Source: a virus. From it: a stretch of 64,000 nt of DNA. The translations under genes were made by a program, and so were the position numbers. The notes beneath the pieces were generated by a model. It had not been told where the DNA came from. It did not search any database and saw only the letters and a program-made list of their open reading frames with translations. Within the stretch, counting starts at the first letter, position 1. Every line of letters starts with the position of its first letter. Shown here in pieces: positions 21,320 to 48,520 of this stretch. The stretch is from positions 34,865 through 98,864 of the IMG/VR virus record IMGVR_UViG_3300008114_000042, one strand, 5' to 3'.

Positions 21320-21619
21320 ATGAGCAACTCATGGAAGTTAGATGGAAAGTGTCTAAACTTTGACACAAACCTGTTCTTCGAAACCTACGAGGAAGACAAA
21401 CTCATAGCAAAGCAGATAGATAAACTCTGTGTCGGATGCCCGGTTGTGAAAACCTGCTACAAGCATGGTGTTTCCAACAAAGAGTACGGCGTCTGGGGCG
21501 GGGTATATTTAGATGGTGACGGAGACTGGGACAGAGAGTTTAATAGCCACAAATCAGAGAGAGACTGGACAGAAATCCGCTTCTCTCTATCAATGGATTG
21601 GGAAGAGGAAGTGAAGTAA
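21320..21619 (+). CDS. whiB: WhiB-family transcription regulator
   Basis: Four conserved Cys and 'GVWGG'. Confidence 0.92.
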   Translation: MSNSWKLDGKCLNFDTNLFFETYEEDKLIAKQIDKLCVGCPVVKTCYKHGVSNKEYGVWGGVYLDGDGDWDREFNSHKSERDWTEIRFSLSMDWEEEVK

Positions 21620-23701: not shown

Positions 23702-23774
23702 GCCCCCGTAGTTCAGCAGATAGAACAGCGGATTTCTACTCCGTAGGTCGTGGGTGCAATTCCTACCGGGGGTA
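23702..23774 (+). tRNA. tRNA-Arg (UCU)
   Basis: Cloverleaf; gcgga-ttTCTac-tccgt. Confidence 0.88.
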
Positions 23775-23943
23775 CAAAAATATTGTGGTATAATACTTGA
23801 CTACAACGACCAAACCTGTTATACTTTACACATAACACAATAGCGAGTTCGATGGGACATAGGGACTTGTGAGGATATGTGCCTCAATAAAAACCATCCC
23901 TCCCCATCCCCTGTTGATAGTCAGGGAAAACAAAACTATCCGG

Positions 23944-24015
23944 TAGGGAGAGCCAATGGATAGGCACTTTGTCTCCAAAACAAAGCAAAACAGGGTTCGA
24001 CTCCCTGCTCCCTTG
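23944..24015 (+). tRNA. tRNA-Trp (CCA)
   Basis: tttgt-ctCCAaa-acaaa; T arm caggg-ttcgact-ccctg; slightly irregular 5' end. Confidence 0.75.
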
Positions 24016-24042
24016 CAAAAGATTCCAAAGTGTGGTATAAGC

Positions 24043-24113
24043 GCTCCCTTAAGTTAATAGTAAACTGGTAGTTTTACACACTACTCACGGCGGGGCGGTA
24101 CCGTCAGGGAGTA
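24043..24113 (+). tRNA. tRNA-Val (UAC)
   Basis: gctccct/agggagt; gtagt-ttTACac-actac; divergent T loop. Confidence 0.75.
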
Positions 24114-24120
24114 CGCACAA

Positions 24121-24187
24121 TGCTCTAGTTGGTACGGCGGGGTCCTCATAAGTCCCCTAGCCTTAGGTTCGAATCCTGATAGAGCAA
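24121..24187 (+). tRNA. tRNA-Met/Ile2 (CAU) with truncated D-arm (possible pseudogene)
   Basis: tgctcta/tagagca; ctCATaa loop; GGTTCGAATCC; 5' strand of D-stem missing. Confidence 0.6.
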
Positions 24188-24232
24188 CGGTTTCCAAGTA
24201 GCGAGCGCTTTGGAAGTGTGGTATAATGGAGT

Positions 24233-24655
24233 ATGAAAATTTGTGGAACCTGTAAAGAAGAAAAGCCAATTAGCGAGTTCTCCCTCAAAAAGGGAAAGCC
24301 CCAGTACAACTGTAAAGAATGTCATTCAAAGTATAGAAAAGCACACTACGAAAACAATAAGCAAAAATACATAGACAAGGCTGCTAAGAACAAGAAAGCA
24401 TATGCCAGAGAGTATTACGACTGGCTAAGTGGCAAATGTTGCGCTGACTGCGGGACGACAGACATAAGAGTCTTGGAACAGGACCATCTCAAAGATAAAA
24501 AGTTTAATATCTCTTTGCTAATAGGGAGGGTGAGACTCTCTACGATGATGGAAGAATTGAATAAGTGTGAAATCGTGTGCGCCAACTGCCATATCATCCG
24601 TACCGGAGAAAGGGCGGGGTGGCTGAAACAAGAATACTACGCGAATATAGTTTAG
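24233..24655 (+). CDS. HNH endonuclease inside tRNA cluster
   Basis: 'CADCG...DH...CEIVCANCH'; stop lies within tRNA-Gly. Confidence 0.85.
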   Translation: MKICGTCKEEKPISEFSLKKGKPQYNCKECHSKYRKAHYENNKQKYIDKAAKNKKAYAREYYDWLSGKCCADCGTTDIRVLEQDHLKDKKFNISLLIGRVRLSTMMEELNKCEIVCANCHIIRTGERAGWLKQEYYANIV

Positions 24656-24711
24656 AGGTAGAACCAGTGATTTCCAATCATTCAGCCGGGGTTCGATTCC
24701 CCGTATTCGCT
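24641..24711 (+). tRNA. tRNA-Gly (UCC)
   Basis: gcgaata/tattcgc; agtga-ttTCCaa-tcatt. Confidence 0.88.
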
Positions 24712-24840
24712 CGCAAGGTATGGCTCAGTAATGTGAGGTGACGATGTTGATGCCTATGTCGCACATAGAGACATCGAAACAATATCATTATTCATCCCCA
24801 GCCACGCACCTACCAAGGGTTGCCGCCCGAGGGTAGAGAG

Positions 24841-24868
24841 GGGGAGAGGTCGGCAAAGCCTCTCCCCT
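24841..24868 (+). terminator. GC-rich hairpin
   Basis: ggggagagg ... cctctcccc inverted repeat. Confidence 0.5.
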
Positions 24869-25200
24869 TCATAATAATGGTATAATAACTCTATGTGGTG
24901 TGACGTACATCGACAGAAATTTGATTTAGATGAGAATGGATGGCCTACATGCGAGGACAAGGAGAAAGAGAAGGACTAAGAAAGTCCTTGCCCTATCTCT
25001 TGTTCTGGTTGCTGTGTGGGGGATGATACATTACCGTGTCGTCCCAGTTATGTACTACAATATTCTATGTTTCTTTGATACGGAATACAACGCAATGAGG
25101 ACCGATGCAGGACACCAAGAATGTTTGGAGTCCTATCACGAGCGATAAGGGGCGGGACGGATCAGACCTCCTGCCCTTTGTCTATACCTCAATATTCAAG

Positions 25201-25284
25201 GGAAGATTGGCAGAGTGGCTAATGCAGCGGCTTGCTAAGCCGTAGGTCCGTAAGGGTCCGTAGGTTCGAATCCTACATCTTCCT
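25201..25284 (+). tRNA. tRNA-Ser (GCU)
   Basis: ggaagat/atcttcc; ttGCTaa; long variable arm. Confidence 0.92.
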
Positions 25285-25362
25285 CTGTGGTTTAAAAGTG
25301 TGATACAATTGAACTGGCCTGAAACCAGTCAACGCAGGGGACCGCAATGGTTGCCCTGCCAA

Positions 25363-25435
25363 GGTCCGTTAGAGTAGCGGTAATCTCGCTTCCCTCTCAA
25401 GGAAGAGAACAGGGGTTCAAATCCCCTACGGACTA
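25363..25435 (+). tRNA. tRNA-Glu (CUC)
   Basis: ggtccgt/acggact; cttcc-ctCTCaa-ggaag. Confidence 0.9.
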
Positions 25436-25440
25436 CGCAA

Positions 25441-25521
25441 GGCCTAATGGTGGAACGGTATACACGCACGACTCAAAATCGTGTGCTTTGCGGCATGTGG
25501 GTTCGAATCCCACTTGGGCTA
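25441..25521 (+). tRNA. tRNA-Leu (CAA)
   Basis: cacga-ctCAAaa-tcgtg; long variable arm. Confidence 0.92.
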
Positions 25522-25613
25522 CAAATGAGAGCATCTTGTGATGCGAATAAAAGCATTCCGTAAGGTCGGAGTGCTATACTTAGAAGAATGCGCAACCAAT
25601 CCAAGGAGAAATA

Positions 25614-32745: not shown

Positions 32746-33929
32746 GTGCTCCTGCCTTCCATTAAGTGGTTCGTAATATCCATTATACAGGATACCCTGC
32801 CGATACCCGAAAATCTGTGCAATATTTCTGTGCGGTTCGTAATCTATTTTCCTGCAATTCTGGGGGTCCTTCGTAAATGGAGGGTGGTGTCCGATATGGT
32901 AGGGTTTGGGAGGATTTGTGCATGAAATTTTCTTGGGCTAAATGGGCGAAATGTCCGATTTGTTAATGTGCGAAATGTCCGATTTGGGTGATATTGTCCA
33001 CAGGTTATGCACAGGGGCCGCGCCCCGCCTCACTTTTCTAGACTATGCTCACTTAACGAACTCTCCCCATCCCCGAACACCAACAGTGTGCATCCCCCCA
33101 TGAGAAAGAACACGAAGATTAGTGCGATCACTCCCCCCACGAATGTAGTAATGAAGTCATCACCCCTCTGCTGATTCATCATTGTCTCCCATCTCTACCG
33201 CCGAATACACGATGGTGAACAGCCGACTAGTGAGTTCTGGTGACTCCCAGTAGGTCCGACGAACATCATGCTTGATCGTTTCTTCCTTTGTTGTCTGTAG
33301 GTAGCGCTCCAACTTATTCGTCGCCATTGTTCCACGCCTCCGTAACGTCAGCAATAAGAATACCACGGTGGTCATAGAGATAGACTGAGGCATACTCGGG
33401 GTAGATAGAGTCAGACTCAATAGACTCTACCCAATAGACCTTATCGCCTTCCTGTACCCGGCTCCAAAACTCATCCTCATCGAATGGCCCCTGTGGGAAT
33501 GAGATGTGAGACTTGCCTTCATCATTCCACGCAAGCGAATAGCACTCGCCCATTTCTCCAAGATCGTGGACCTCGGGGTCCAGTACCCATACTGTCATTT
33601 CACTCCTTTGCTTGGTTCTATTCTACCAGAAACGGGGGCAGTTGTCAATACTAACTACCCCCGCTCTGGGACACCGACCCATACAGGCCAGCGGCGGTTC
33701 CCATCCCAAGGAACACTAATCAATCCGGCACTCAGGCCAGATTGTAGCCAGCACTTCCACCATCTGCCTACACTTTATATCTTGGTATGCTTCCGGTGTC
33801 CAAGACTCGGGATAAAACCATTCCTCAGCAGCAGTGTCCCAGACATTGCCGTCAAGATACTTGGTCTCATCCTCAACAGACCACTTGTGGGTATGGTCGT
33901 TGTATGACACGATGTAGTGATATTCCATC

Positions 33930-34244
33930 TTAAATACCTTCAATCAGATTGACGGGAGTAGTGATACGTCCACGGAAGCGACCACATGGCCTATCAAGTT
34001 GGACAACAACCTTGGTCCTATTGATCTGGACGATAGTTCCCTGCTCACCAGCAAGGTACTTGGGCCGGGTATTGGAAGTGTAACGCACCCTATCCCCTAC
34101 ATTGTAGTCAGTAGCCTTGGGAGCAAGCGCATCCATCCTACTCTTGATAGTCTGCATCATACCATCAAGGTACTCATCAAACTCTCCATTCAGAATACCC
34201 GCTGCAATAATGTAGTAGTCATCGAACTTGATCTTGGTTTCCAT
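33930..34244 (-). CDS. SH3/KOW-like hypothetical protein
   Basis: 'VGDRVRY...GTIVQINRTKVVV'. Confidence 0.6.
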   Translation of the reverse strand: METKIKFDDYYIIAAGILNGEFDEYLDGMMQTIKSRMDALAPKATDYNVGDRVRYTSNTRPKYLAGEQGTIVQINRTKVVVQLDRPCGRFRGRITTPVNLIEGI

Positions 34245-34258
34245 TTCATTTCCCTTCA

Positions 34259-34846
34259 TTAGATACCCCACGGTGGCTTCGCACCGTCACGCTTGGGGTC
34301 TGCCCCCATACGCATAAGTGCTGTTTCCAACTTAACAATAAGACGACCAGCGGGAGTCTGCCAGTAGTCGGCGGTCTCACAGGTCTGGTAGTCATAGCAA
34401 CGAACCAGATGGAGCGCTTGGTCCATACTCTCAGGGTCATAGTCGTCATAGTGACGCTGAGTAGAGGCAAACGGCTTCGACCAACGATAGGAGGGGGTCC
34501 GACCTCGCTCGCCATAGCGATAGTTGATAGACCTGTGATTCTCCTTCCAGAGCATCTTCCCCATGTTGGTCTTGTCTGCCTTGGATACCCCCAGCATATC
34601 AGCCCAATACACAAGAGCGTCAATGTGACGCTTGCTTACGATCCATGCACTCATGCCAGTTCCTCTCCATCCATCGGGACCAAGGAGGGTGTAGTTCCCC
34701 CAGCCAAACTCTTCCTCTGCCCATGACTCAATAAGTGAGATAACTTCTTCGTCAGTAGGATCAATGTCCATTTCCCGCAGGTAGGTGCGGGCATCCTCAA
34801 CGTTATAGGTAAACGTCTGCTGGGCCATGATATACTCTGGTAGCAT
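34259..34846 (-). CDS. hypothetical protein (possible fusion; second start at 34654)
   Basis: 'MSAWIV...EN.RS..YRY...CYDYQTCE...W'. Confidence 0.6.
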   Translation of the reverse strand: MLPEYIMAQQTFTYNVEDARTYLREMDIDPTDEEVISLIESWAEEEFGWGNYTLLGPDGWRGTGMSAWIVSKRHIDALVYWADMLGVSKADKTNMGKMLWKENHRSINYRYGERGRTPSYRWSKPFASTQRHYDDYDPESMDQALHLVRCYDYQTCETADYWQTPAGRLIVKLETALMRMGADPKRDGAKPPWGI

Positions 34847-35366
34847 TATGCCTCCTGCCAGTTAAAGTAGACACGGGGAGCGTGAGTAAACTCAAGTGTG
34901 CCCTGCACACCGTCAGACTTACGATTCACAACAACAAACGGAGCAACGAAACCAAGAACCTCAAAGTCCTCTTGCAGTTCTTGGGTGTTCCACTCAGTCT
35001 TCATAGTCATCCTCATCCTACTCACGGGGAGCATCGTCCATAATTTGCAGGGTACCGGAGGAAAGCAGCCATTCCAACTGTCCCATACCGTCCAGAATCT
35101 CATCAGACTCAAACTCATAGTCTGCCTCGTGCCCACCGCACTCAATGTAACCGGAGTAAATCATCACTCGTCCTCATCCTCAGGCTCCTCAACACTGTCA
35201 ATTTCGTAGTTGTCAAATGGCATAGTGTAGCCACCGTTGGCAGAGTAGGCCGACCAATTCTCGGAAAACTCAATAGAGGCAGTGTTAAGAGCCTCATCGT
35301 AGGAGTTAGCCTCTACCTCAAACGAGTCAGAGAAGTAGGCATTGACGTACACAACGTAGGTTCCCA

Positions 35367-35729
35367 TCACGCACCGCTCCAAGAGAAGTTGGAAACATCA
35401 TCGACATCAATGCTGATGTTGTCAATGTCGGAGGTATAGGAGGAGAAGTGGACCTCACCAGAGACCTCGGCCTCAATGTCATCGCAATCGAAGCCCACCA
35501 GCGGCACGGTAACGTAGCCAGAGAAGTGGAAGTCACCCTCAACGTAAATCTCCTGCGTGAGAGAGAAGCCAAAAATCTTAGCAATAGGCTCAGCATGATC
35601 CTCAAGGTCCTCAATGTTTTCCTTGAGATACTCTTCCAACTCAGCAATCATGCGGTTCTTGGTGTTCACGGTCTGTTCCAGCCGCTCAATGCGCTCAGAC
35701 ATTGCCAGCACCTCTTCGTACTCGGGCAT
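35367..35729 (-). CDS. acidic hypothetical protein
   Basis: RBS GAAAGG; own promoter. Confidence 0.6.
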   Translation of the reverse strand: MPEYEEVLAMSERIERLEQTVNTKNRMIAELEEYLKENIEDLEDHAEPIAKIFGFSLTQEIYVEGDFHFSGYVTVPLVGFDCDDIEAEVSGEVHFSSYTSDIDNISIDVDDVSNFSWSGA

Positions 35730-36050
35730 TTGTTCCTTTCACGGAGGGCGTTTCCCTCGCTTCTATAGGTCTAAGTATACCCTACTCTGACCCACAGCGC
35801 AAGAGTTTCGCCAGAAAAATCTTAGAATTTTTTGCCCAAGAAGTTCGGGATAAAATTTGTGGAAAAAATTGTAGATAAATTTTCGGGGCCGCGCCCCGCA
35901 AAATTTTCCAGAAAGATTCTGACGCACATACCGACCACGATCACAAGACAAATTTGGTGAGAGGAATCCTCTGCGCAAATTGTAATACTGCCTTGGGATT
36001 AATGAAGGACGACCCCGAGATTCTCAGGGCCGCCCTCCACTATTTAGAGA

Positions 36051-37055
36051 TTACAGGCCAGCGACCTGCTTAACAATCCCAAGGAGCCGGTTCTTCTCCG
36101 CATTCGTGGCGGCATCAAAACCAGAGGCAGCAGCCAGAACGGCGGTTGCGTCACCCTTGCGGGGGTTCCTGTACCAATCCAGTCGTTCGGTCAGGGCATT
36201 CAGGCATCCCCACGCAGTACCGGCGATCATGCCGTTAGTCTCACCAGTGTAGATAGAGTTGATCGTGTCAACCTTCTTCTCCCACTTGGAGAACGAGCCC
36301 TTAGCATCCTTGTCAGGAACCGGGTAGGCAGCGGTGATGATGTCGAAGAACTGCTTATCGCTAATCTCCTTGGCAATCATCTCAGCAGCCTGCTTGTCGA
36401 ACTCATCCATGTAGGCGTGAGCCAGACCAAGAGCCTCACGAGCAGCAGCAATACGGCCCTCAAGAGTCTGAGTGTGACGGATACGGTAGGACTGCTTTGC
36501 AGCCTTGCCACGAGCGCCAACAGCCATGTTGAGCGTGTTCTGGCAGACCACACGGACGGGGGTAACGCTGGCCTGAATAGCAAGCGAGCCGTCATGCGAG
36601 GTATGAACCAGCAGGTAAGACTTCACCTTATCACTGACACCCTTGGGGTCAAGGACAGTCTCACGCTCAAGAGCGAGGGAGCCGAACACGACGGTACCAT
36701 TCTTGATAGCGCCAGCAGTCTCCCAGCGAGCACCGTCAAGGATGTTATCACCGAAGGCAAACAGTTCCTCATTCTGGAGCACCTTGTAACGCTCGCCCAC
36801 GACACCAAGAACGTCCTTCTGAGAACGGTCAAACGGGTTGGTGCGAACGGTAGAGAACCAGTCCTTATGACTGTTGGTATTCTTAGGGAACTTGATCGGC
36901 TCAAGCCGAACGTTCCAATCGTTGAGGTGTGCTGCTGCCAGCATTTCCTCGGTAGTGACCTCATCCTCAAGGATGGTGCCCAGACCATGCCATGCAGGCT
37001 GACGCAGGGAGGCGAAGGTCGCCATATCCTCGTACTGCTCAAGCATATGTGCCAT
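36051..37055 (-). CDS. DUF932-family phage/plasmid protein
   Basis: 'PAWHGLG', 'LQN', 'SHDGS', 'RVVCQNTL', 'TAWG..NA..E..DW'. Confidence 0.88.
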   Translation of the reverse strand: MAHMLEQYEDMATFASLRQPAWHGLGTILEDEVTTEEMLAAAHLNDWNVRLEPIKFPKNTNSHKDWFSTVRTNPFDRSQKDVLGVVGERYKVLQNEELFAFGDNILDGARWETAGAIKNGTVVFGSLALERETVLDPKGVSDKVKSYLLVHTSHDGSLAIQASVTPVRVVCQNTLNMAVGARGKAAKQSYRIRHTQTLEGRIAAAREALGLAHAYMDEFDKQAAEMIAKEISDKQFFDIITAAYPVPDKDAKGSFSKWEKKVDTINSIYTGETNGMIAGTAWGCLNALTERLDWYRNPRKGDATAVLAAASGFDAATNAEKNRLLGIVKQVAGL

Positions 37056-39041
37056 TTTGTTACTTCCTTTCGTGAGGGACAATCCCTCGTTGTTGTTATA
37101 GTCTAAGTATACACGATCCGGCGCAGGTTGTCAAGAGGAAAATTCATTTTTCCTGCGATATTTTTAGTTAGTCCGTAATCCGTTTCGGGCAGGGTGTCCG
37201 GTTTGACCCAGTTTGGGGGAGGATCGAATGTCCGTTTTGCCCGTTTTGGGTGTCCGAACTGTCCGATTCTCCCCTTTTTGCTACTCTAAGTATACCGGAC
37301 TTGGAAACCATTGTCAATGTGAGATAGATCACACGGGGCGCGGGTAGGGTTAGGGTACCCTTACTCCCTATTCAGTGCAGCCTCAGCATAGAAGTCCTCA
37401 TAGCCCATCATAGGCTCATCAAAGGATGCCTTCATCTCGGCATGGTCCTCGTCTGTGAGGTCTTCCCACATTGTCTCGGGGTACTCATAGGGATCACCGT
37501 AGTAGCCGTACTGCTCATCAGTACCCCAGCCACACGACTCCATCACGAAGTCAAAATCGTCATTCATCGAACGTACCAGTCCTCATCAGAAATATTGCTA
37601 CGGGTAATGGGGGCCAGCATCTCAAAGCCCCACAGAGCGGTGGTGCGCTCGCCACACACCGGGCAAGGACCATAGGCAACGTTGGTCCAGTCCTCCCCAC
37701 GCTGGTGGATGCCAGCGAAAGGCATGGCGTTGTGGAGGCCACGACCCTCATAGGCGCACTCTACACAGTCGATAGTGGCGGGGCTGTGAACCGCTTCCTT
37801 GGTCTCATTCATAGTTCTACTATAGCATCGATGGGGGCTGTAGTCAAGTCCTGAGAGTGTGATGTGTAACACACGGGGGCGCGGGGCCTACTCGTCCCCG
37901 AAGCCCCACGAGTCAAGGGAATCCTCATCGAAATGACCCCGCATCATCTGCTCAGTGTACCAGCCTTGAGCGTCGAAGCCGTCTGAAAACTCGAAAATAG
38001 CCATTATTTTCCCTTTCTGTTGACACTACAATACCACATAATTGCTCTGGGAGTCAACTTCTGGTGTTGTGATGTCGGTCACAGGGCGGGTCGCGCCCCG
38101 CAAAAAGTATTTGAGTAGTTTTACATCATACTCAGGATGTTGGTCGAAAGGAAAGAGGGAAAGGTACCTCACATCTTTCGTCCATTCCCCACTATGACCA
38201 GTAGTGAGGAAGTTGAAGGCCACCTTTATCCCCTTGCTTGGGTGGCATATGGTAAGAGTCTTATCTCTATCTCATAGAGTGGGGTCTTACCGTTTTTTAA
38301 TTAGACAGTAACGTTGGCACGGATGCCCCGTGGGAGGGTAGAGAAGATAACGTCGTCATTGACGGTCATCTCCACGATCTTCCGACCGTTGTGCTTGTGG
38401 ATATCTAGAACGGTACCACGGAGGCCCGAACGGGAGGTACGGTAGGTGTCGCCAACCTTGACTGACTTGGGCTTGCTCGGCATATGTATTCCTTAGTGCT
38501 GTAGTGGGTCTTTCTGATGACTCAAGTATACCGGATACCGGCGCTATTGTCAAGTCACGTTTCGGTAACGCTACTCTTCGTAGTCGGGACTATCCAACAC
38601 AATACAGGGAAGCGTATCGGTATCAGATACCTCAATAGACTTAAACTCGGACCACTCATCTAACAGATGAATGATGTACCCGCTGCCGGTGGGAAACATG
38701 GAATTAATGACGTACTCACTGCCACGGATAATTACCCTGTCCCCTACTTCAAGCGAATAGACTTCTATTCTATCAATGACCTTCATGCGCACCCCCCAAA
38801 CAACGGGGTATAGAAATAGATGTGAATGTCTAGGGTTGACTTCCAGAGTGAAATCCAGTCCCCAAACTCATCCCCATCGACATAGCACAGGAAGTCGTTA
38901 TCAGTGTAGACGATCCATTTGTCCTCGTCATCATCATAGGGCATTTCATAGACGTGTGCGTTCATCCGAACCACAGCGCCAAAAAGCCGGTAGCCATGAG
39001 AACGATGTTTTCCAACAGGAAGGGGGGAATTTTAATCTTCA

Positions 39042-39287
39042 TTACTTATCCCTACTAAAACCGTTGTCGGTCTCATCAATAGTATCTTGGGCAAACCCAA
39101 TGAGGCTTGCCTCAAACTTGCGTGCATGATGAGCACAGAATTGCAAGGGAAGACCCTTCTTGTTTGCCACCCGCACCCATGCTCGCTGAATACAACGGTC
39201 GCAACGGTCCATCAAGGAAAGGACAGGGGCAGGAGGGACAGGCTCATAATCGGCGTTGTCGATAAGAGTCTGAACAGGACTTCCCAT
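39042..39287 (-). CDS. small Cys/His actinobacterial-type protein
   Basis: 'DRCDRC..RAWV...LQFCAHH'. Confidence 0.65.
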   Translation of the reverse strand: MGSPVQTLIDNADYEPVPPAPVLSLMDRCDRCIQRAWVRVANKKGLPLQFCAHHARKFEASLIGFAQDTIDETDNGFSRDK

Positions 39288-39864
39288 TAGATTTCTCCTC
39301 TCAGAATAGCAGCCTTGATATAGTTAAGGTCAGAGGTATTGTCATAGGTATACTCAAGGATTTGATTGAGCACGCTTGCCTCATCAGGAGTAACCATGAG
39401 GGTGGCATAGACAAATTCAGTATTCGGCATTACGGTGCTTGGCCTTCCTAGTATACTTGCTCTTATTACGATGGGGCTGGGCAGCATTGGACCGGCGAAG
39501 GTCCTGCCAATACTGCACTTCCTCACGGGTCTTCTTTCTTGTTTTCATCATGGTAATACTTTACCACACTTTTCGTTGGATGGGAAGAGGCAAAACGGAC
39601 ATTGGAGTGTGATGATTGTCACATTGGACCGCGCCCCGCCTCAGATTTTTACCCTACAGCACTCAACGCATCAGCAATATCATACTTGACATTCTTTAAT
39701 CCGATAGTCACAGTCTCTATGCGATCCTCTGCGTTCTCATTCACAAATGCAAGACTCTCAAGACTGTCAATGATCTTGTTGACCTCATTTGCCGCACGGT
39801 AGAGAGCGTGACGCATAGCAAACTGAGTCTCAGTAAGTTCCTTGTTAGACTTCACCGGAAATCA

Positions 39865-40257
39865 CTATTTCCTTTCATCGTTCCAGCGCTGGATGCAACT
39901 CTTGCACCTACGCCTACCATCTACATATTTTGTGTTCTCGTCATTGTATGGGTGCCCCCACTTGCAATGGGTCTTGGCTTGGTTGGCGTGTCGGCCCTTG
40001 GACACCATATCTCCAACGTTGTCAGCAGGAGAGCCTGCTCGCAAGTGCCGTGGATTCACACAGGAACGATTATCACACAGGTGCATAACAACATCGGGCC
40101 ACTCTCCATAAGTCAGGAAATATGAGAGTCTGTGTGCCTTCCAATAGTTGTATTGTCCATACCCGCCGGGATTGACATACCCTGACCACTCCCAACATTC
40201 ATCGGGAGCCCCCATGACTACCCTCGCCCAGAACCGGGCAGGAGCCTTAGAATACAT
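39865..40257 (-). CDS. HNH endonuclease (HNH_3-like)
   Basis: 'CWEWSG...GYG...AHRLSY...H.CDN..CVNP.HL...N..D'. Confidence 0.88.
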
Positions 40258-41039
40258 CTGAAACATCCAGAATCTCAAAGTCCTCAGGAGAAAACTCCTC
40301 ACGACTACGAATGTAGTCTAGGGCAGCATCCCTATTGGGGAAGGACCGCTGAAAGACGTTCAGGTAGTAAACTCTATACTGACTCATTGTTCTCACTTTC
40401 ATAGTTCATCTTAGAAGGCTTACGACAGTAGGAGCACACCCACTGTCCACTATTGGGGTCAAGTGTCCATCCATCCTTGGCACTATGACCCTTCGTACTA
40501 CCCTCACACCACGCTGTCATCGGCTTTGCAGCCTTGTAGTGATAGTATCAATGAGAGCGGAACAGCGCTGCTCAATTTCTTTGAGGTACTCCACCGCCTC
40601 CTCATCTTCACTGCACGTTCCCATGAGGTCCACAGCATTTTCCATACGGTCGTTCAGGGTGTCTGCAATGAAGTGCCAGACATCCTCCCGAAACTGAATA
40701 CTCACGGGCAAGGCGGGGGACCTTCCAATAATCTCGTAGTCATCAAATGTGGTGCCGTCGCCAGCCAACTCAACACGGCTGTTAATCTTCTCAACAGCAT
40801 CCTCCCATGAGCGGGTAGAGAATACAGGGCGACCTAGGAAGTGAACCTCATAACTCATGCGAGTGTCCCCACAAACTCTACGTCAACCAACTTGGTTGCA
40901 ATGGAAGGATGCACACCCTTGATAACGTCAGCCACGTCATGCAGGTCGTTCTCTTGGATAATGGTTCGATCCTGATTGTTAAATCGGTAAGTGATAACCC
41001 AGACGTTCATTGTGTAACCTTTCGTTGTTTCTTGGTTTT

Positions 41040-43755
41040 ATTCTAGCAGGGGGGTCTGACATTGGAGGCTTGGAAATGCTATCAAATCGGACAGGTTGTA
41101 TAACGAGATGGTAACAGAGTTATCCACAGATTTCCCAAGTTATCCACAGGTGAAAAGTTGTTTAGTACCAACAACTTTCGGCCCTCACCATGGACTACGC
41201 CCATAGCCAATAACCGTTATATCCCAACGCTTTTGGACTGCCCCATTCTCAGCCATGAATGCATCAATGAGTTCATCAGGCACATAGCCATAGACAGAAG
41301 TGCCACCAATGCTACCGTCGTGGTAGTCAGCGAACGGCTCAATGGGATCGCATACCCATTTGCCATTGAGGAAGAAAGCAATCTCACTAGAGATACCCTT
41401 GCGGCACATATGGTATTCGCTGTTCTGCACACTGATCTCATCAGCCTGCGGGTGAACGATAGTGTAAGTAGGCATTTATGCTCCAATCGCATTGTGAATG
41501 ACAGCGCCATTCTCTACGGAAATGGTCAGGGTATTGACGTAGGTATCGCCATTCCAAATCTCAATGTCGATAGTCTGGTCAGTATCGAATGACCACACCT
41601 TAGCGGTGATGGTATCGACTACTGCCTCTGCGAAATCATGCTTGGTAATCATTGTGTTTCCTTTCTACCAGCGTCCGAATGACTTGACAGGCTCACGATC
41701 CCCAAGAGCGGAGCGGAGTTCGATAGAGCCGCAATCCCGCATGGAGACTGGCGTACCGTCAATCTCAACCCAGAAACGACCCTGACGGTGCTTAGGCATC
41801 CAAGTGACGATGCCCTCCATTCCACCAGAAGTGAAAACGTGGTCGCCAACCATGAGGTCGGTAGTGCAAATGCGGATCATTTTCTTACCTTTCTTGTTTC
41901 TTTCTATACCCTCATCCTAGCAGAGGGGTCTGACATTTAGTTCGGGGGAATCGGGTGATATCGGACACCCAATCAGAACCGTTACCTAACCGTTACTTTC
42001 GGTTGAGGTAGCCCTTGTGAGGGCAATCACGACGGTCATGGCGACTGTCGCAACCAGAGCAGAGAATCTGAGTCATTGTCTTTCCTTTCTTTCTATGCCA
42101 TCAGTCTAGCAGGGGGGTCTGACATTCTTGGCCTCAGAATGTGTGCAAAACGGACACACGCAGAAAAAAGTTTATGTGATGAATCTCACAGGACGGGCCG
42201 CGCCCCGACCCTCAGGAGTTGTTTAATCCCAACACTTATTCTCCCCAGAAGTCGTCAAGCAGTACCCGGCAGTCGTTGCACAGGTGTCGTTCGGTGCGAG
42301 TGTTGGCAACAATTCCAAGCGCAACAGTCTCTACCTGCATCCAGCCAACAGCATCGCAACTGTTGGGACTCACTGTTGTCTCGCACACGTTGCAAGTGAT
42401 CCAGTCTATACGCTCATGCCACCTCACAAAATATCCTCTTCCTCTTCGCACTCACCTTCAATAGTCAGGTCGGGGTACTCATAGCCTTCACCGAGGTAGT
42501 AGCAGTAGTAGTCGAATGCTGATTCGCAGAATGCGGTCTCAACCAAAACCCCATCACGCTTGCTAACGATGCTATGCATGACTAGAACGGTGCCTTCCAG
42601 TATTCCTTGCCGTCTACGACAACGTAGTCAGCGTCCTCAATGGGCATGAGTGGCTTAGTCTTGGTCGGCTCATCAATGAGAGTAGTGAAGTGCTTGACGT
42701 TGGCGGTAGGGACATAGATGATGTCCATATCCTTATTGTCTACCTCCCAAGAGATGTAGGCAGCCTTGACGATCAGGCTATCCTCCACAACGTGAGCATA
42801 GACGCCTGCGGTACCGTCCTGAAAGAAAATCTGAATACGCATTGTGTGAATCCTTACTTGTGAGAAGAGCAGTGAGCGTGCCCATGCGAGCACTCGAAAT
42901 AACCGAAGTCGATATCCTCATCCTCAAGCATGAGGGAGGCATAGACGTTTTCCTCTTCCTGACGGGCGAGGACGTATGAACATTCATTGTCCATATACTC
43001 CCATGAAGAGCCACAGCAGCAGCCGCCCTCATTGAAGTCAAAGTGATGAGAAATGTTAGACATTAGCGTCCATCCAATCCCACACGTCAGCGATGACGTG
43101 CGTGTTGCGAGTGAGTGAAGAGCAAGTACCCATGTAGGTTGCAGAGAAGCGGCGGGACTCCTCAACGTGATCGGCGTAAACCTCAACGTCATACTCCCCA
43201 TCAGAGTACGGGCCGAACACAAAAAGCGTGAACGGCAGCCGACCGAGAGCGGTGTCGTGATAGATATGGAAGGTTGGGAGGGTCATTGTATAGCCTTTCG
43301 TTTGTTTCTTAGTTTCATTGTAGCAGGGGGGTCTGACATTCAGACAGGCGAATGTCCGTTATGTCGCATTTCGCCTAGTGTGACAAGAATCACAATGGGG
43401 GTCTGACAGTCGGAACTTGTACGACCCATGGCGGGGACGGACAATGAAAGTAAAGGTAGTGCCATACATGGTGAATGACTCCACACGGTACTGAGTATGC
43501 TCACGCCCATGGCGGCTAGATGCCTTGAGGACACGGTAGTTCTTACGCATTACCGTCCATCCCCCACATCTGCTCCCAATAGTCCTCATCCTCGAAGTCA
43601 TCCCAAGCCTCACGGCTCTGAATGATGAGTTCGCACTCAGGCAGATCGAAGATATCAATGTCTGTGGTGATGCGACCACAGGCGCTCTTGACTGTGACGA
43701 AGGTTGACATTCCTTGTCCTTTCTCTTGATCGAAGTCTAGCAGAGGGGTCTGACA
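41040..43755 (-). promoter_or_regulatory. five TGTCAG-N10-TAnnnT promoters (PafBC/RecA-NDp-like)
   Basis: 41040-41061, 41914-41935, 42103-42124, 43317-43338, 43734-43755; degenerate copy ~43387-43408. Confidence 0.8.
41120..41148 (+). promoter_or_regulatory. two perfect DnaA boxes
   Basis: TTATCCACA at 41120 and 41140. Confidence 0.7.
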
Positions 43756-43756
43756 G

Positions 43757-44155
43757 TCACCGTGACCGATGGGCACGATTGCGTTCATTCTTGCATAGGC
43801 GACAGGTCTTGTCCCCACGCTTGTTGTGATACCAGTTCTCAGGCATCCATTCATGGCCCCGCACACAATGGGTCTTGTTCTGCCATGCAGCACGGCCACG
43901 GGTGATCATGTCGGCGGTATTGCTCAGATTGGACCCCTCCTGCAAGTGACTAGGGCGAACGCATCCACGATTGTCGCAGGTATGACGAACAAGGGTAGGC
44001 ATCTCCCCATAGTAGAGAGCATAGACAAGCCTATGCGCTCTATAGGTTTCGCCATTCATCTTGATCCTTCCATATCCTGAAACAAACTTAGATCCAGTCC
44101 ACTCCCAGCAATCGCCAGAGGTGTCTACCTTGTCCAGAATGGTGCTAATGTCCAT
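43757..44155 (-). CDS. HNH endonuclease (HNH_3-like)
   Basis: 'CWEWTG...GYG...AHRLVY...HTCDNRGCVRPSHL'; leaderless after TGGTATAAT. Confidence 0.88.
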   Translation of the reverse strand: MDISTILDKVDTSGDCWEWTGSKFVSGYGRIKMNGETYRAHRLVYALYYGEMPTLVRHTCDNRGCVRPSHLQEGSNLSNTADMITRGRAAWQNKTHCVRGHEWMPENWYHNKRGDKTCRLCKNERNRAHRSR

Positions 44156-44403
44156 AGTGACCATTATACCATCCTTTAGACAAGTTCGGGCACAAGCGAA
44201 AGAAGACTGCCCTCCTCGCCCAATGTTTCTACGTTTGCAACCCTGCCATAGAAACACACATGGTCAGTAGGGTCACCAGCGGTAACCACACGAACAGACT
44301 TACCAGAGGTAAGATGGACCAAGTAAACGAACATTGTCTAACCTTTCTTTCTACCCTTAGGGTACCACAGGTAGGTGCCAGCCCCTATTGAAGATTTGAT
44401 GAG

Positions 44404-44475
44404 CGGAACCAACGGGGATCGAACCCGTGTTACCACCGTGACAGGGTGGCGTGTTAACCTCTACACTATGATTCC
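44404..44475 (-). tRNA. tRNA-Asp (GUC)
   Basis: ccacc-ctGTCac-ggtgg. Confidence 0.92.
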
Positions 44476-44476
44476 T

Positions 44477-44551
44477 TGGCTGGCATGGGAGGATTCGAAC
44501 CTCCAACCTTTCGATTAACAGTCGAACGCACTGCCGTTGTGCTACATGCCA
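44477..44551 (-). tRNA. tRNA-Asn (GUU)
   Basis: ttcga-ctGTTaa-tcgaa; encoded CCA. Confidence 0.92.
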
Positions 44552-44556
44552 CAGAG

Positions 44557-44628
44557 TTGGGGTACATGGATTCGAACCATGAATGACAACGTATCAGATT
44601 GTAGTGATGACCTTTTCACTATACCCCA
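44557..44628 (-). tRNA. tRNA with GAU (Ile) anticodon on a Gln-like body
   Basis: tggggta/tacccca acceptor; acaat-ctGATac-gttgt; A73. Confidence 0.7.
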
Positions 44629-44633
44629 TGGAG

Positions 44634-44705
44634 AGCCTAGAGAAGGAATCGAACCCTCAACCAACGCATTACAAGTGCGCCGTTCTACCATTGAACTACC
44701 TAGGC
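44634..44705 (-). tRNA. tRNA-Thr (UGU)
   Basis: gcgca-ctTGTaa-tgcgt. Confidence 0.92.
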
Positions 44706-44710
44706 AAGAG

Positions 44711-44781
44711 TGGAGATACAGGGATTTGAACCCCGAACGATTGCTTGCAAAGCAACTGTGATACCTTTTCACCATATCCCC
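44711..44781 (-). tRNA. tRNA-Ala (UGC)
   Basis: ttTGCaa loop; G3:U70. Confidence 0.92.
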
Positions 44782-44798
44782 GTCGTCTGGGCCGCTAG

Positions 44799-44869
44799 TG
44801 GGGGCACAGGGAATCGAACCCCGATCTGCTGATTAAGAGTCAGCGGTTTTACCGTTAGACTATACCCCC
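44799..44869 (-). tRNA. tRNA-Lys (CUU)
   Basis: gctga-ctCTTaa-tcagc. Confidence 0.92.
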
Positions 44870-44874
44870 GAAGT

Positions 44875-45305
44875 GTGTGTGGTAGGAATATTCTCAGGCT
44901 TCCCTACCTTCCCGGTGACTGGCCTATCCCTTGCGGGTGCTACTGAGAGCCGGGGGTTCAAGGGGATTACTATAGGCATTGGTGGCGAGAACCTCATTTA
45001 ACATTGAACGTGTCACTATTTGTACCTACTACCCTTGTGTTTTGGGGTTTCGGGGACTAGGCTAACCCGGTCTAACCGGAGCGTTCGTTCCACCCTTCTG
45101 AGTACCATTGCCACTACGGCTTTCCTCAGTTTTCCCAAGTTTGTGAGCGGATTCTTACCGCTTTCAGATTTCGGTCTGTGCGTGCCTAGCGTTTCTAGTT
45201 TCGACTGGCGCATCCTGTGCTTTCCAATTCCCAACTAGTGCTTCGGGGCTTTCAGACTCCCAATCTGCGCTTCCTAGCGCTTCTGGATACTCTCTATTTT
45301 CTTAT
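44875..45305 (-). ncRNA. candidate large structured ncRNA upstream of tRNA cluster
   Basis: Own promoter, no credible ORF, many hairpins and GAAA/GCAA loops. Confidence 0.6.
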
Positions 45306-46497
45306 GTCTTAAGAGTACCACACTTTGGTCTGGTTTGCAAGTCCTGAGGCTTATTTGCTGTGTGAGGCTCATCACATTTTCTGTGCTTACTTGCTCACGC
45401 AGGCTCATCCTTGACCTTGCTCACTCTCTATTTTCTTATACCTTAAGGTTACCACGGATGGGGGCAGAAAGCAAGTTGAAAATGCATACAAAACGGACAA
45501 CTTTATGTGATGTGTGTCACAACGGGTCGCGGCCCCCGTTAATATTCCTGACTATACACCTGCTCAGCAATATCCTTGTATTCAGCCTTCATTAGATACC
45601 CCTGCTCAATAAGCATATCCAGAGCGCTCAGTACCATTTCCCATGATCCACGAGGCATCTCTACTCTAACCACAATATCTTCCTTCTCCATACCCTTGCG
45701 GAATCAGCGTAACGAAACCATCGTTGGCATCGTCATTAGTAAAAACAGCGTTGATAAAGCGTAGGCCGCATGACTCGTCATACCAGTCTACGATATCCTT
45801 GAGGTTGGGAGCATATGTCTCATAGTCCCATTCCTCCATTTGCCTAACCTGCTCATCATCCATAGACAGGTAGATTTTATGACAACCGTCAAAATGCATA
45901 CCCTTCGCATTACGGAGCATTTGCTCTACCAGCCACCAGCGGTCATCCATTGTATTCCTCCATTGCCTGAGTGTATGAGAAGTCTATTACCTCATACTCT
46001 CTAATAGCCCCATCATTGCTATTGTATGTCTGAATGAATAGTGGGCGGCAGTCAAGGCATCCCGCTACTCCACACCCGCCGATTAGTGTGCGTTCGATAG
46101 TCATTAGTAGTACCGTCCTTCATTCATCATTTCATCGGTAGGGTAGTGGTAAATAGGATGGGCGCAAAGCCATGCAGACATGCCATGCTCGCAGATATCC
46201 TCCTCAGGATCGGGAGGATATTCCATATTATCCATTTGATATGCCCCCAATAGTCCACGGTAGTCATTATCTACAGACTCACAAGGGAATTCGTCAGTAA
46301 TCATTAGAATACACTCCCACACACGAGACAGATAGCCTTATACCTAGGTTCGATATCCTCGCAGCCGATACACGGCTCCCACGGTAGGTCGGGGAAATAC
46401 TTATAGACAAATTCTTCGACAGCCCTCTGGCCCTTATCTTGATAGATAGCGTAGCAAACGTCATCCAGACCGATAGTGTCATCCATGATTATTTTCC

Positions 46498-47244
46498 TTA
46501 TTTCTTTGATCGTGAGAATGAGATATTGGCCTTATTATCAACGCATAGACGGCAGACACTACAGGCGCTACCCTCGGTGCTAATAAGGGGAATTTGCTTA
46601 CGCTGCTCAGGACAGATAGCACCGGGCCTGCCGGTAATATCCTTGACAGCCGCCTGACTTTCTGCAAAAGTCTCAGCAACGAAAGCGACCTTAATTCCAT
46701 AAGTACGGTAGAGCATATCTGCTACCGGCTTATTATTGGGGTCGCCACTAAAGTAAAGCGACAGATTAGGCAGATTAGCCTTGTGCAGCCTGACGGCAGC
46801 ATTAGCATTACGGGTATAGACCCAGAATTGGATATGCGGGTACAGGATGATAATGTTAATCCATGCCTCAATATAGGTTTCAGAGAAAAAGTCCCCGTCC
46901 CAATGGATGCGATAAATACGCTCAGAGCCCTTTTTCTCAGACTTAGTATCGAATTCCCAGATAAGGGCGTTCAGCATATCGAAAGTGTCGATAAGGTTGG
47001 CATCCTTAAGGGCATTGTAATTGTGGAGCATGGCAGCCCCGACACCCTTAAAAAGGTTTTCCAATTTGCCAGCGTAGCAAATTAGTTCGCAATATTCGGT
47101 AGCACCGACGCAGGAATAGTCAATTCCATTGGCAAGGCCCATAGTATTTGAGAAAGCGGCCTGCTTTCCATTTTTAGTAACGCAGGAAGCCACTTTCCGG
47201 TCATTAGAAGCGGCTAGGACGGGGAGCATTGTTTTCGTAGTCAT
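46498..47244 (-). CDS. Gp88-like Cys-rich protein
   Basis: 'SCVGAT..C...CYA', 'RIHWDGDF', 'WVYTR', 'CP...C..C..C'; leaderless ATG 47244. Confidence 0.75.
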   Translation of the reverse strand: MTTKTMLPVLAASNDRKVASCVTKNGKQAAFSNTMGLANGIDYSCVGATEYCELICYAGKLENLFKGVGAAMLHNYNALKDANLIDTFDMLNALIWEFDTKSEKKGSERIYRIHWDGDFFSETYIEAWINIIILYPHIQFWVYTRNANAAVRLHKANLPNLSLYFSGDPNNKPVADMLYRTYGIKVAFVAETFAESQAAVKDITGRPGAICPEQRKQIPLISTEGSACSVCRLCVDNKANISFSRSKK

Positions 47245-47856
47245 AGGTGTAACTATACAGGATAATATGGGTATGGTCAAGGGGCAAAACGGACATTGGC
47301 GTGTGAGTAATATCACAGGGGGCGCGGCCCCGGCAGGGTAGTCAGGAGGGTAGTGTAGCAAGGTAGCAGGTAACAAGGTCATAGGGTACAAGGGTGTAGA
47401 ACACAGAGTGTCCATGGTCCCTTACCACTACAGCCTCATGGTCAGCGAAGAAGGGCACAAGGGTAGCGCTAGCACGGTCATGCTTAAAGAACACAACGGT
47501 ACAGTTGCGAGGGTAGTTGTATACCTGAAACGACGTATGCTCATCCCCCTCTGGGAGGTAGTGCTGTACCCTACCTACCCTAGTAGTCATATCCACCACA
47601 GCACCACATGCAGCCTTCCTTGTGGTCATCCTCATCCTGTACCTTCTCTTCTTCAATGTCAAGGTAGTCCATGATTCCATCAGTAATGGAGTAGTACCTA
47701 TCCTTGCGATGACGGATTTCGTTAGTCCATTCTCCATCACCCTTGTACCGTCGCCATGCTACGTCGGTATGCCAGTTAATGTGTGCCTCACCATGCTTGT
47801 CCTTGACGTATGCTATCTGCACACGGGCAGGGCGAGTCTTATCAGTCTTGCTCATA

Positions 47857-48321: not shown

Positions 48322-48520
48322 AGTCTAAGACTACAGCATGGAGAGGGATAAGTCAAGTTGTGATGGTGTGATGATTGTCACAGACAATATAGGCGCACTA
48401 AACGCTGACGCATAAAGGACAAATAGGACGTATCGTACAAATAGTCTCAAAATTAAAGTTTGTCGATATTAATAAACAAAATAGTGAGAAGTAATAAAAA
48501 TAGTGTGATATAATGGGTAT

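Follow-up and report, generated by a model that had tools for sequence, protein, structure and literature searches.

Predicted promoters of the PafBC type precede small-gene units in a lake phage

The activator PafBC serves promoters with the in vivo consensus tGTCgg(N10)tA(N3)T, whose 5′ part lies at −28 to −23 around an invariant GTC and which have no −35 element (PMC8635444). The GTC triplet is contacted by two arginines of PafB (PMC8635444), and PafBC, which is activated by single-stranded DNA (ssDNA), is placed between the DNA and region 4 of sigma-A (PMC8635444, PMC11804915). Here we describe five sites of this design in a phage genome, in a stretch of 64,000 nucleotides (nt) from virus record IMGVR_UViG_3300008114_000042 (positions 34,865 to 98,864), hereafter called the window. 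All five agree with the PafBC consensus in every sequence feature: TGTCAG, a 10-nt spacer, TANNNT and no −35. Promoters of the PafBC type are already known; in the literature, we found no paper that describes the phage motif as a promoter, reports PafBC-type promoters on phages or links PafBC to phage early genes.

The window contains five exact copies of TGTCAG-ACCCC(C/T)CTGC-TANNNT, all on the minus strand in the region 41040–43755, and with the spacing, spacers and hexamers that a first-pass annotation of the sequence had described. They are listed here with their scores under a weight matrix derived from 747 related sites in phages:

41040–41061, minus strand: promoter P1, TGTCAG, spacer ACCCCCCTGC, −10 hexamer TAGAAT; 35.7 bits
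41914–41935, minus strand: promoter P2, TGTCAG, spacer ACCCCTCTGC, −10 hexamer TAGGAT; 33.5 bits
42103–42124, minus strand: promoter P3, TGTCAG, spacer ACCCCCCTGC, −10 hexamer TAGACT; 32.8 bits
43317–43338, minus strand: promoter P4, TGTCAG, spacer ACCCCCCTGC, −10 hexamer TACAAT; 35.0 bits
43734–43755, minus strand: promoter P5, TGTCAG (43755–43750), spacer ACCCCTCTGC, −10 hexamer TAGACT (43739–43734); 29.0 bits

With this matrix the five sites reach 29–36 bits, and nothing in the rest of the genome scores above 12. For the pattern TGTCAG-N10-TANNNT, the five occurrences in the window compare with a mean of 0.51 in shuffled sequence, where none of 100 shuffles reached five. Relaxing the pattern to TGTCRG adds no copy in the window, and the entire 98,864-base virus record yields no additional copy even when up to 2 mismatches are allowed.

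All five sites are intergenic, P5 beginning 1 nt past the stop codon of an HNH gene. On the 3′ side of every site lies an A-rich leader of 23–33 nt, then GAAAGG, 7 nt and the ATG of a short open reading frame (ORF), so that the ribosome-binding site and short ORF named in the annotation are present in five cases out of five; at P1, the predicted start site is near 41033, GAAAGG is at 41018–41023 and the ATG at 41010. A scan for −35/−10 consensus promoters picked up none of the five sites, and the hexamers found 17 nt 5′ of their −10 elements (CCTCCA, AACTAA, CCAAGA, GTCTGA and CGGTGA) match TTGACA in at most two of six positions, in line with the earlier remark that a canonical −35 is missing. 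The TG extended −10 also noted there is seen at every site, as a TGn motif (CTGC-TANNNT). The same scan reported, in the same leftward arm:

38525–38553, 37289–37317 and 37106–37134, minus strand: three canonical TTGACA-17-TATACT promoters

Two promoter classes, the canonical one and the five box promoters, therefore stand side by side in this arm.

The element is widespread among phages. Among the matches listed, over 120 IMG/VR contigs contain the exact 18-mer TGTCAGACCCCYCTGCTA, and a −10 hexamer follows it in every case. In the 118 unique sites among these matches, at positions that the search did not fix, the last base of the −10 is T in 100% and the fourth is A in 89%, and AAA stands directly 5′ of the box in 71–81%. 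All the listed phage sites carry the same A-rich leader and GAAAGG-type ribosome site, and the genes behind them fall, among the matches listed, into 33 unrelated clusters of small proteins; eight representative downstream genes from other phages, compared with PHROGs, belonged to no family. Contigs of other lake phages match the region in promoter and leader only, and the similarity breaks off precisely at the upstream end of the box. A query with the 37-nt promoter against cultured phages returned only two matches, both to Listeria phages, which we judged to be chance; we found the box in no cultured phage.

The looser pattern TGTCRG-N10-TANNNT occurs 869 times in 1.1 Mb of the listed phage loci, compared with 10 times for a reversed control. 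Spacer sequences differ widely among the 738 other sites, with the classic TGTCAGTGG flavour among them; the common requirement would therefore be the TGTC box plus the −10. In the weight matrix the phage family shares AAA-TGTCAG, TG at −15/−14 and TATAAT-like hexamers, the TGn positions being T in 73% and G in 84%. A relative, a 48-kb fragment that shares the HNH gene and one Cys-rich ORF with the phage, carries 26 such sites within 9 kb (0 in the control), all on one strand and all of the form TGTCAGACCC(C/T)-NN-TG-N-TANNNT, so that the constant part in that lineage is an 11-nt box plus the extended −10.

We then consider the same 18-mer in bacteria, scanned in one genome per prokaryote species, where exact copies were found at 53 loci. 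Eleven Kitasatospora/Streptomyces loci were set aside, as they lie within a conserved coding frame on the opposite strand, which we take, from reading it by eye, to encode a NuoN-like membrane subunit, and represent one inherited chance match. Four or five low-GC ‘bacterial’ matches that look like mis-binned phage contigs, and one match within a lexA gene, were likewise discarded. The remaining loci belong mostly to Actinomycetota and Myxococcota, and many lie directly 5′ of repair genes. Genes behind the exact 18-mer that were confirmed by Pfam encode RecA, SSB (twice), a RecN-like SMC protein, RecJ, ribosomal protein S6, a DUF222-HNH protein and a WGR-PARP protein; RadA and RmuC genes are preceded by copies with two mismatches. 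S6 (rpsF), which heads the rpsF-ssb operon in actinobacteria, follows the exact 18-mer at five loci, and a search of Rfam found no family 3′ of the actinobacterial sites ahead of rpsF. The recA promoters of five genomes, two of them metagenome-assembled genomes (MAGs), were compared:

Planktophila recA promoter: TGTCGGTGGCCTCCTATAGTGT
Mycobacterium recA promoter: TGTCGGTGGGGTCGATTAGCGT
Kitasatospora recA promoter: TGTCAGTGGGACGCGCTAGCGT
Actinobacterial MAG (G005) recA promoter: TGTCAGACCCCCTTGTTAGGGT
Myxococcales MAG (G004) recA promoter: TGTCAGACCCCTCTGCTAGCTT

In the actinobacterial MAG the general pattern occurs 33 times against 2 in the control, recA included, and the phage flavour (TGTCAGACCCC) is mixed with the classic one (TGTCRGTGG).

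Paired WYL genes are present in all five of these genomes. Planktophila, a lake actinobacterium, encodes PafB (WYL-WCX) and PafC (HTH_PafC-WYL-WCX), adjoining trmI, and the Myxococcales MAG a single 689-amino-acid (aa) PafB-PafC fusion (WYL-WCX-HTH_PafC-WYL-WCX); the GTC-reading R-x-x-x-R helix (RMFERDK or RKLERDK) is kept in all four of four PafB parts. Because the same 18-mer precedes repair genes in genomes that bear PafB and PafC, the phage box is, as far as sequence can tell, the one used by a DNA-damage regulon of bacteria, for which PafBC is the known reader. The first-pass annotation had matched the sites to the PafBC (RecA-NDp) promoter type, and this match is supported, both consensus and position being equal to those published (PMC8635444).

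Several observations on the bacterial boxes are of separate interest. Mycobacterium sp. (G002) has on contig 18 a pair of box promoters, 22 kb from each other, with the −10 and leader TATTCTCTAAAATAGAGA in common; one of the pair stands before a WGR-PARP gene. In Planktophila (G001), two loci (L185:1501-1651 and L190:1368-1518) have the phage-flavour promoter TGTCAGACC..GCTATTCT with its end 12 nt 5′ of a SAM-IV riboswitch, and a third phage-flavour copy has the same leader; by sequence there appears to be an unexpected link here between a PafBC-type promoter and SAM-controlled genes. The Myxococcales MAG has 14 near-copies against 2 in the control, 5′ of recA, RmuC-like and IS200-like transposase genes, and in other Myxococcota the 18-mer box precedes ssb, recN-like and recJ genes. 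Judged by the genes it precedes, the phage 18-mer box marks a putative damage regulon in Myxococcota too. Together with the fused PafBC homologue, the 11-nt box suggests that this type of regulon extends beyond Actinobacteria, and box and fusion may represent the LexA-independent route discussed for Myxococcus, for which the WYL pair MXAN_1359/1360 is listed (PMC12288472).

The phage has a G+C content of about 49% and encodes a DnaE-type polymerase III alpha subunit, DnaB, primase, RecA, a Gp88-family protein, long tail-fibre proteins and 12 tRNAs; the terminal repeat of its genome is only 114 bases. Its DnaE protein shows 53% identity to the homologue in Streptomyces phages of the BillNye and Paradiddles groups, and near and distant DNA searches gave no DNA-level match of the region to cultured phages. 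One gene bears on both host and transcription:

21332–21505, plus strand: WhiB-like gene, 46.2 bits, over the cut-off

WhiB is a hallmark of actinobacteria and their phages, and the host is therefore expected to be an actinobacterium. WhiB proteins are also known to bind sigma-A region 4, and this gene was the only candidate found for a phage-encoded partner of that region. No WYL protein was found in the phage, and no sigma factor above threshold, with only a sub-threshold 13-bit match to sigma-70 region 2. The T7-type RNA polymerase family gave no match in the phage, nor in any of 14 control genomes, so that this search does not establish its absence. A tyrosine integrase or other sign of lysogeny was not found. 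The phage is present in lake-water metagenomes, and among the runs listed with it none is an RNA run. Given WhiB, the lack of an integrase, the replication genes and the occurrence in lake water, it most likely infects a lake actinobacterium and is virulent.

Our preferred interpretation, to which we give somewhat better than even odds on the strength of the sequence comparisons, is that a host PafBC-type activator drives the five predicted phage promoters. These would belong to a ‘−26 element plus −10’ class, read by the host’s housekeeping RNA polymerase with sigma-A only in the company of the PafBC-type WYL activator, which, by ‘sigma adaptation’, would link the TGTC box at −28 to −23 with region 4 of sigma. 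ssDNA arising from DNA entry, end resection or phage replication would switch PafBC on and, as PafBC is activated by ssDNA, the five small-gene units would fire once ssDNA appears in the infected cell. The canonical −35/−10 promoters of the same arm would work with sigma-A alone and need no ssDNA signal. For the phage sites, then, we infer PafBC binding, the ssDNA trigger and the timing. Whether lytic phages of lake actinobacteria more generally, this one included, use the host’s ssDNA alarm activator to trigger a gene class of their own is a proposition that we regard as evenly balanced. If it is true, a host repair and defence signal becomes a timing signal for the phage, and PafBC is possibly titrated away from host genes. 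The first-pass annotation had the genes firing when the host senses DNA damage or foreign ssDNA, which we likewise only infer, and it suggested that they may be counter-defence genes; nothing supports the latter role, the downstream ORFs having neither family nor function assigned.

A number of observations weigh against a PafBC-driven programme. The cultured relatives BillNye, Paradiddles and Anthony have no such promoters above control. The host lineage is narrowed down only by WhiB and by the presence of the phage in lake-water metagenomes. For Planktophila, one genome was examined: its recA has the TGTCGGTGG flavour, the phage flavour is found ahead of the SAM-IV riboswitches instead of repair genes, and the general pattern shows no enrichment (12 sites, 13 in the control). 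A TGn extended −10 can function in actinobacteria without an upstream element, and since all five sites have one, basal PafBC-independent activity of the box promoters is likely. Finally, every complete motif-bearing phage checked encodes WhiB, namely this phage and all four of four others.

This last point leads to an explanation in which the TGTCAG box is read by a factor of the phage itself: the conserved WhiB, or some small early protein that has escaped recognition, would couple sigma-A to the box much as MotA/AsiA do in T4, and the sites would resemble PafBC promoters in geometry only, by convergence or mimicry. The consistent presence of WhiB makes such an adaptor possible, the arm is full of small ORFans among which a factor could hide, and the AAA before the box in phages is missing from the bacterial sites. 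However, the identical 18-mer stands before repair genes in bacterial chromosomes, and its presence in uninfected chromosomes, Myxococcota included, argues for a host reader; we know of no WhiB proteins in Myxococcota, nor, WhiB7 apart, of WhiB proteins that read DNA sequence. The first promoters of an infection, moreover, cannot rely on a phage product unless it is injected, and we consider this explanation unlikely. It is about equally doubtful that the sites are constitutive extended −10 promoters of sigma-A, at which TGTCAGACCCC is bound by a host factor unrelated to damage or tunes promoter strength via DNA shape. The TGn at all five sites and its frequency in the phage family would fit, as would the use of the same flavour to drive SAM-IV riboswitch units in Planktophila, but an 11-nt box kept at a fixed distance in hundreds of sites requires a reader, it lies out of reach of sigma region 4 in the usual geometry, and in bacteria it marks repair genes.

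Could the box instead be an operator that overlaps the promoter, bound by a repressor of either phage or host origin and comparable to the stoperators of cluster A mycobacteriophages? The sequence is asymmetric and repeated, confined to one strand and placed at gene starts, and other operator-like boxes (TGTGA-N6-TCACA and TGTCCG) lie nearby; against this, box and −10 are the same distance apart at all sites, neither an integrase nor another sign of lysogeny was found in the phage, and the bacterial repair genes that carry the box have a separate LexA box. We hold an operator to be very unlikely. The first-pass annotation had itself cautioned that the five sites might be recent duplications, and such copies of one promoter cassette need have no special regulatory meaning. 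The leaders of P1 and P4 are indeed 92% alike over 39 nt, but the other flanks are unrelated, and the element recurs on more than 100 other, unrelated phage contigs, whose flanks are unrelated too and whose similarity stops exactly where the box ends; we therefore reject duplication, to which only a very small residual probability can be given.

The five predicted promoters divide the region into five units, set out here from upstream to downstream with the features that adjoin them:

43757–44257, minus strand: HNH endonuclease gene, directly 5′ of P5, with a family match by Pfam/PHROGs
43543–43710, minus strand: P5 unit, gene 1, 55 aa with an acidic and aromatic tail, no Pfam or PHROG family
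43359–43550, minus strand: P5 unit, ORF 2, 63 aa
43397–43408, minus strand: degenerate sixth copy of the element, TGTCAGACCCCC, its −10 lost, followed by a TGTGA-N6-TCACA box at 43379–43394
42236–43286, minus strand: P4 unit of five small ORFs
43056–43286, minus strand: P4 unit ORF, 76 aa
42854–43063, minus strand: P4 unit ORF, 69 aa, Cys/His-rich
42582–42842, minus strand: P4 unit ORF, 86 aa
42424–42579, minus strand: P4 unit ORF, 51 aa
42236–42451, minus strand: P4 unit ORF, 71 aa, Cys-rich
41993–42076, minus strand: P3 unit, one ORF only, 27 aa, CxxC...C..H
41185–41880, minus strand: P2 unit of three ORFs, 41665–41880 (71 aa), 41476–41652 (58 aa) and 41185–41475 (96 aa)
41153–41179, minus strand: terminator-like hairpin with a 10-bp stem, a 7-nt loop and TTTT, ending the P2 unit before P1
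41084–41093, minus strand: upstream element TGTCCGATTT, starting exactly 32 nt 5′ of the TGTCAG of P1
40517–41010, minus strand: start of the P1 unit, ORFs 40855–41010 (51 aa) and 40517–40858 (113 aa)

In Pfam and PHROGs searches with ten downstream ORFs, the HNH gene was the sole match, and the 13 downstream ORFs belong to no family; a protein atlas returned virus-only clusters of hypothetical proteins or nothing, the 96-aa ORF of the P2 unit being a member of one such virus-only family. The call of the 63-aa ORF at 43359–43550 is uncertain, as its 3′ part overlaps both the degenerate copy and the TGTGA box. Homologues of the 55-aa first gene of the P5 unit occur at 17 other phage loci, within similar promoter-driven blocks. 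In contigs of three other lake or freshwater runs this gene has a 30-nt in-frame insertion at window position 43639, a natural length variant of the small protein.

The upstream element found before P1 is repeated before P2 (41958–41967) and P3 (42147–42156). In its general form, TGTCCG(A/T)T(A/T)T, it has 11 copies in the genome, all within the small-gene arm (window 32888–47295) and on both strands; three are those lying exactly 32 nt 5′ of P1–P3, and the others precede canonical or extended −10 promoters at other distances. In the wider phage family its position peaks at −32 and −23, in helical phase, and it may be a second site for the same factor or for another.

Other repeated motifs were seen in the same arm. 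Perfect CRP/GlxR-type boxes, TGTGA-N6-TCACA, lie in its intergenic blocks at 39607–39623, 42174–42190, 45505–45521, 48366–48382, 43379–43394 and about 47305–47320, usually preceded by a GC-rich hairpin and followed by a TGTCCG element, where about 0.06 would be expected by chance. Two DnaA-box-like CTGTGGATAACT repeats (TTATCCACA on the other strand), 21 nt apart, sit between the terminator of the P2 unit and P1 (window 41115–41150, minus strand); a further DnaA-box-like sequence, TTGTCCACA (32990–33010, plus strand), adjoins three TGTCCGAT repeats near 32888–32985. Six tRNA genes (44403–44869, minus strand) lie just 5′ of the HNH gene and promoter block, and six more at 23702–25522 on the plus strand.

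With five promoters, and two promoter classes in one arm, the window is a small yet clean case. If phages carry such promoter arrays, the host’s ssDNA sensor would serve as a developmental switch for the phage, providing timing without a regulator of its own, and actinobacterial hosts could be recognised in viral metagenomes by a simple sequence signature. To our knowledge, ‘sigma adaptation’ of the PafBC type is known only for host DNA-repair genes. The WYL regulators DriD (Caulobacter), SiwR, CapW and BrxR are also ssDNA-sensing factors tied to damage and phage defence; their operators and modes of action differ, however, and we know of none that serves phage promoters. Temperate phages whose genes are coupled to the SOS response through LexA boxes or RecA-cleaved repressors also tie their expression to a host damage signal, but they do so by removal of a repressor, whereas in this phage, in which no integrase was found, the coupling would be activation via a WYL-domain ssDNA sensor.

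In the middle promoters of T4, a MotA box at −30 is combined with the −10 of sigma-70, and AsiA and MotA bring about ‘sigma appropriation’. As proposed for the present sites, a box set a few bases 3′ of the −35 position stands in for the −35 of a phage promoter and is linked to sigma region 4 by an adaptor. The T4 adaptors are encoded by the phage and remodel sigma; in the phage described here we found no such adaptor, and the reader is probably an activator of the host. The closest match is to the PafBC (RecA-NDp) promoters themselves, which have the same TGTC(A/G)G at −28 to −23, 10-nt spacer and TANNNT with no −35 (PMC8635444, PMC6789036, PMC11804915), and the same box was found here before recA in actinobacterial genomes. 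Unlike these host promoters, the phage sites lie on a lytic phage and before small ORFans rather than repair genes, and their box is longer (TGTCAGACCCC instead of TGTCRGTG), often preceded by AAA and accompanied by a TGn extended −10. The extended box TGTCAGACCCC with TGn is a candidate for a ‘strong’ PafBC promoter.

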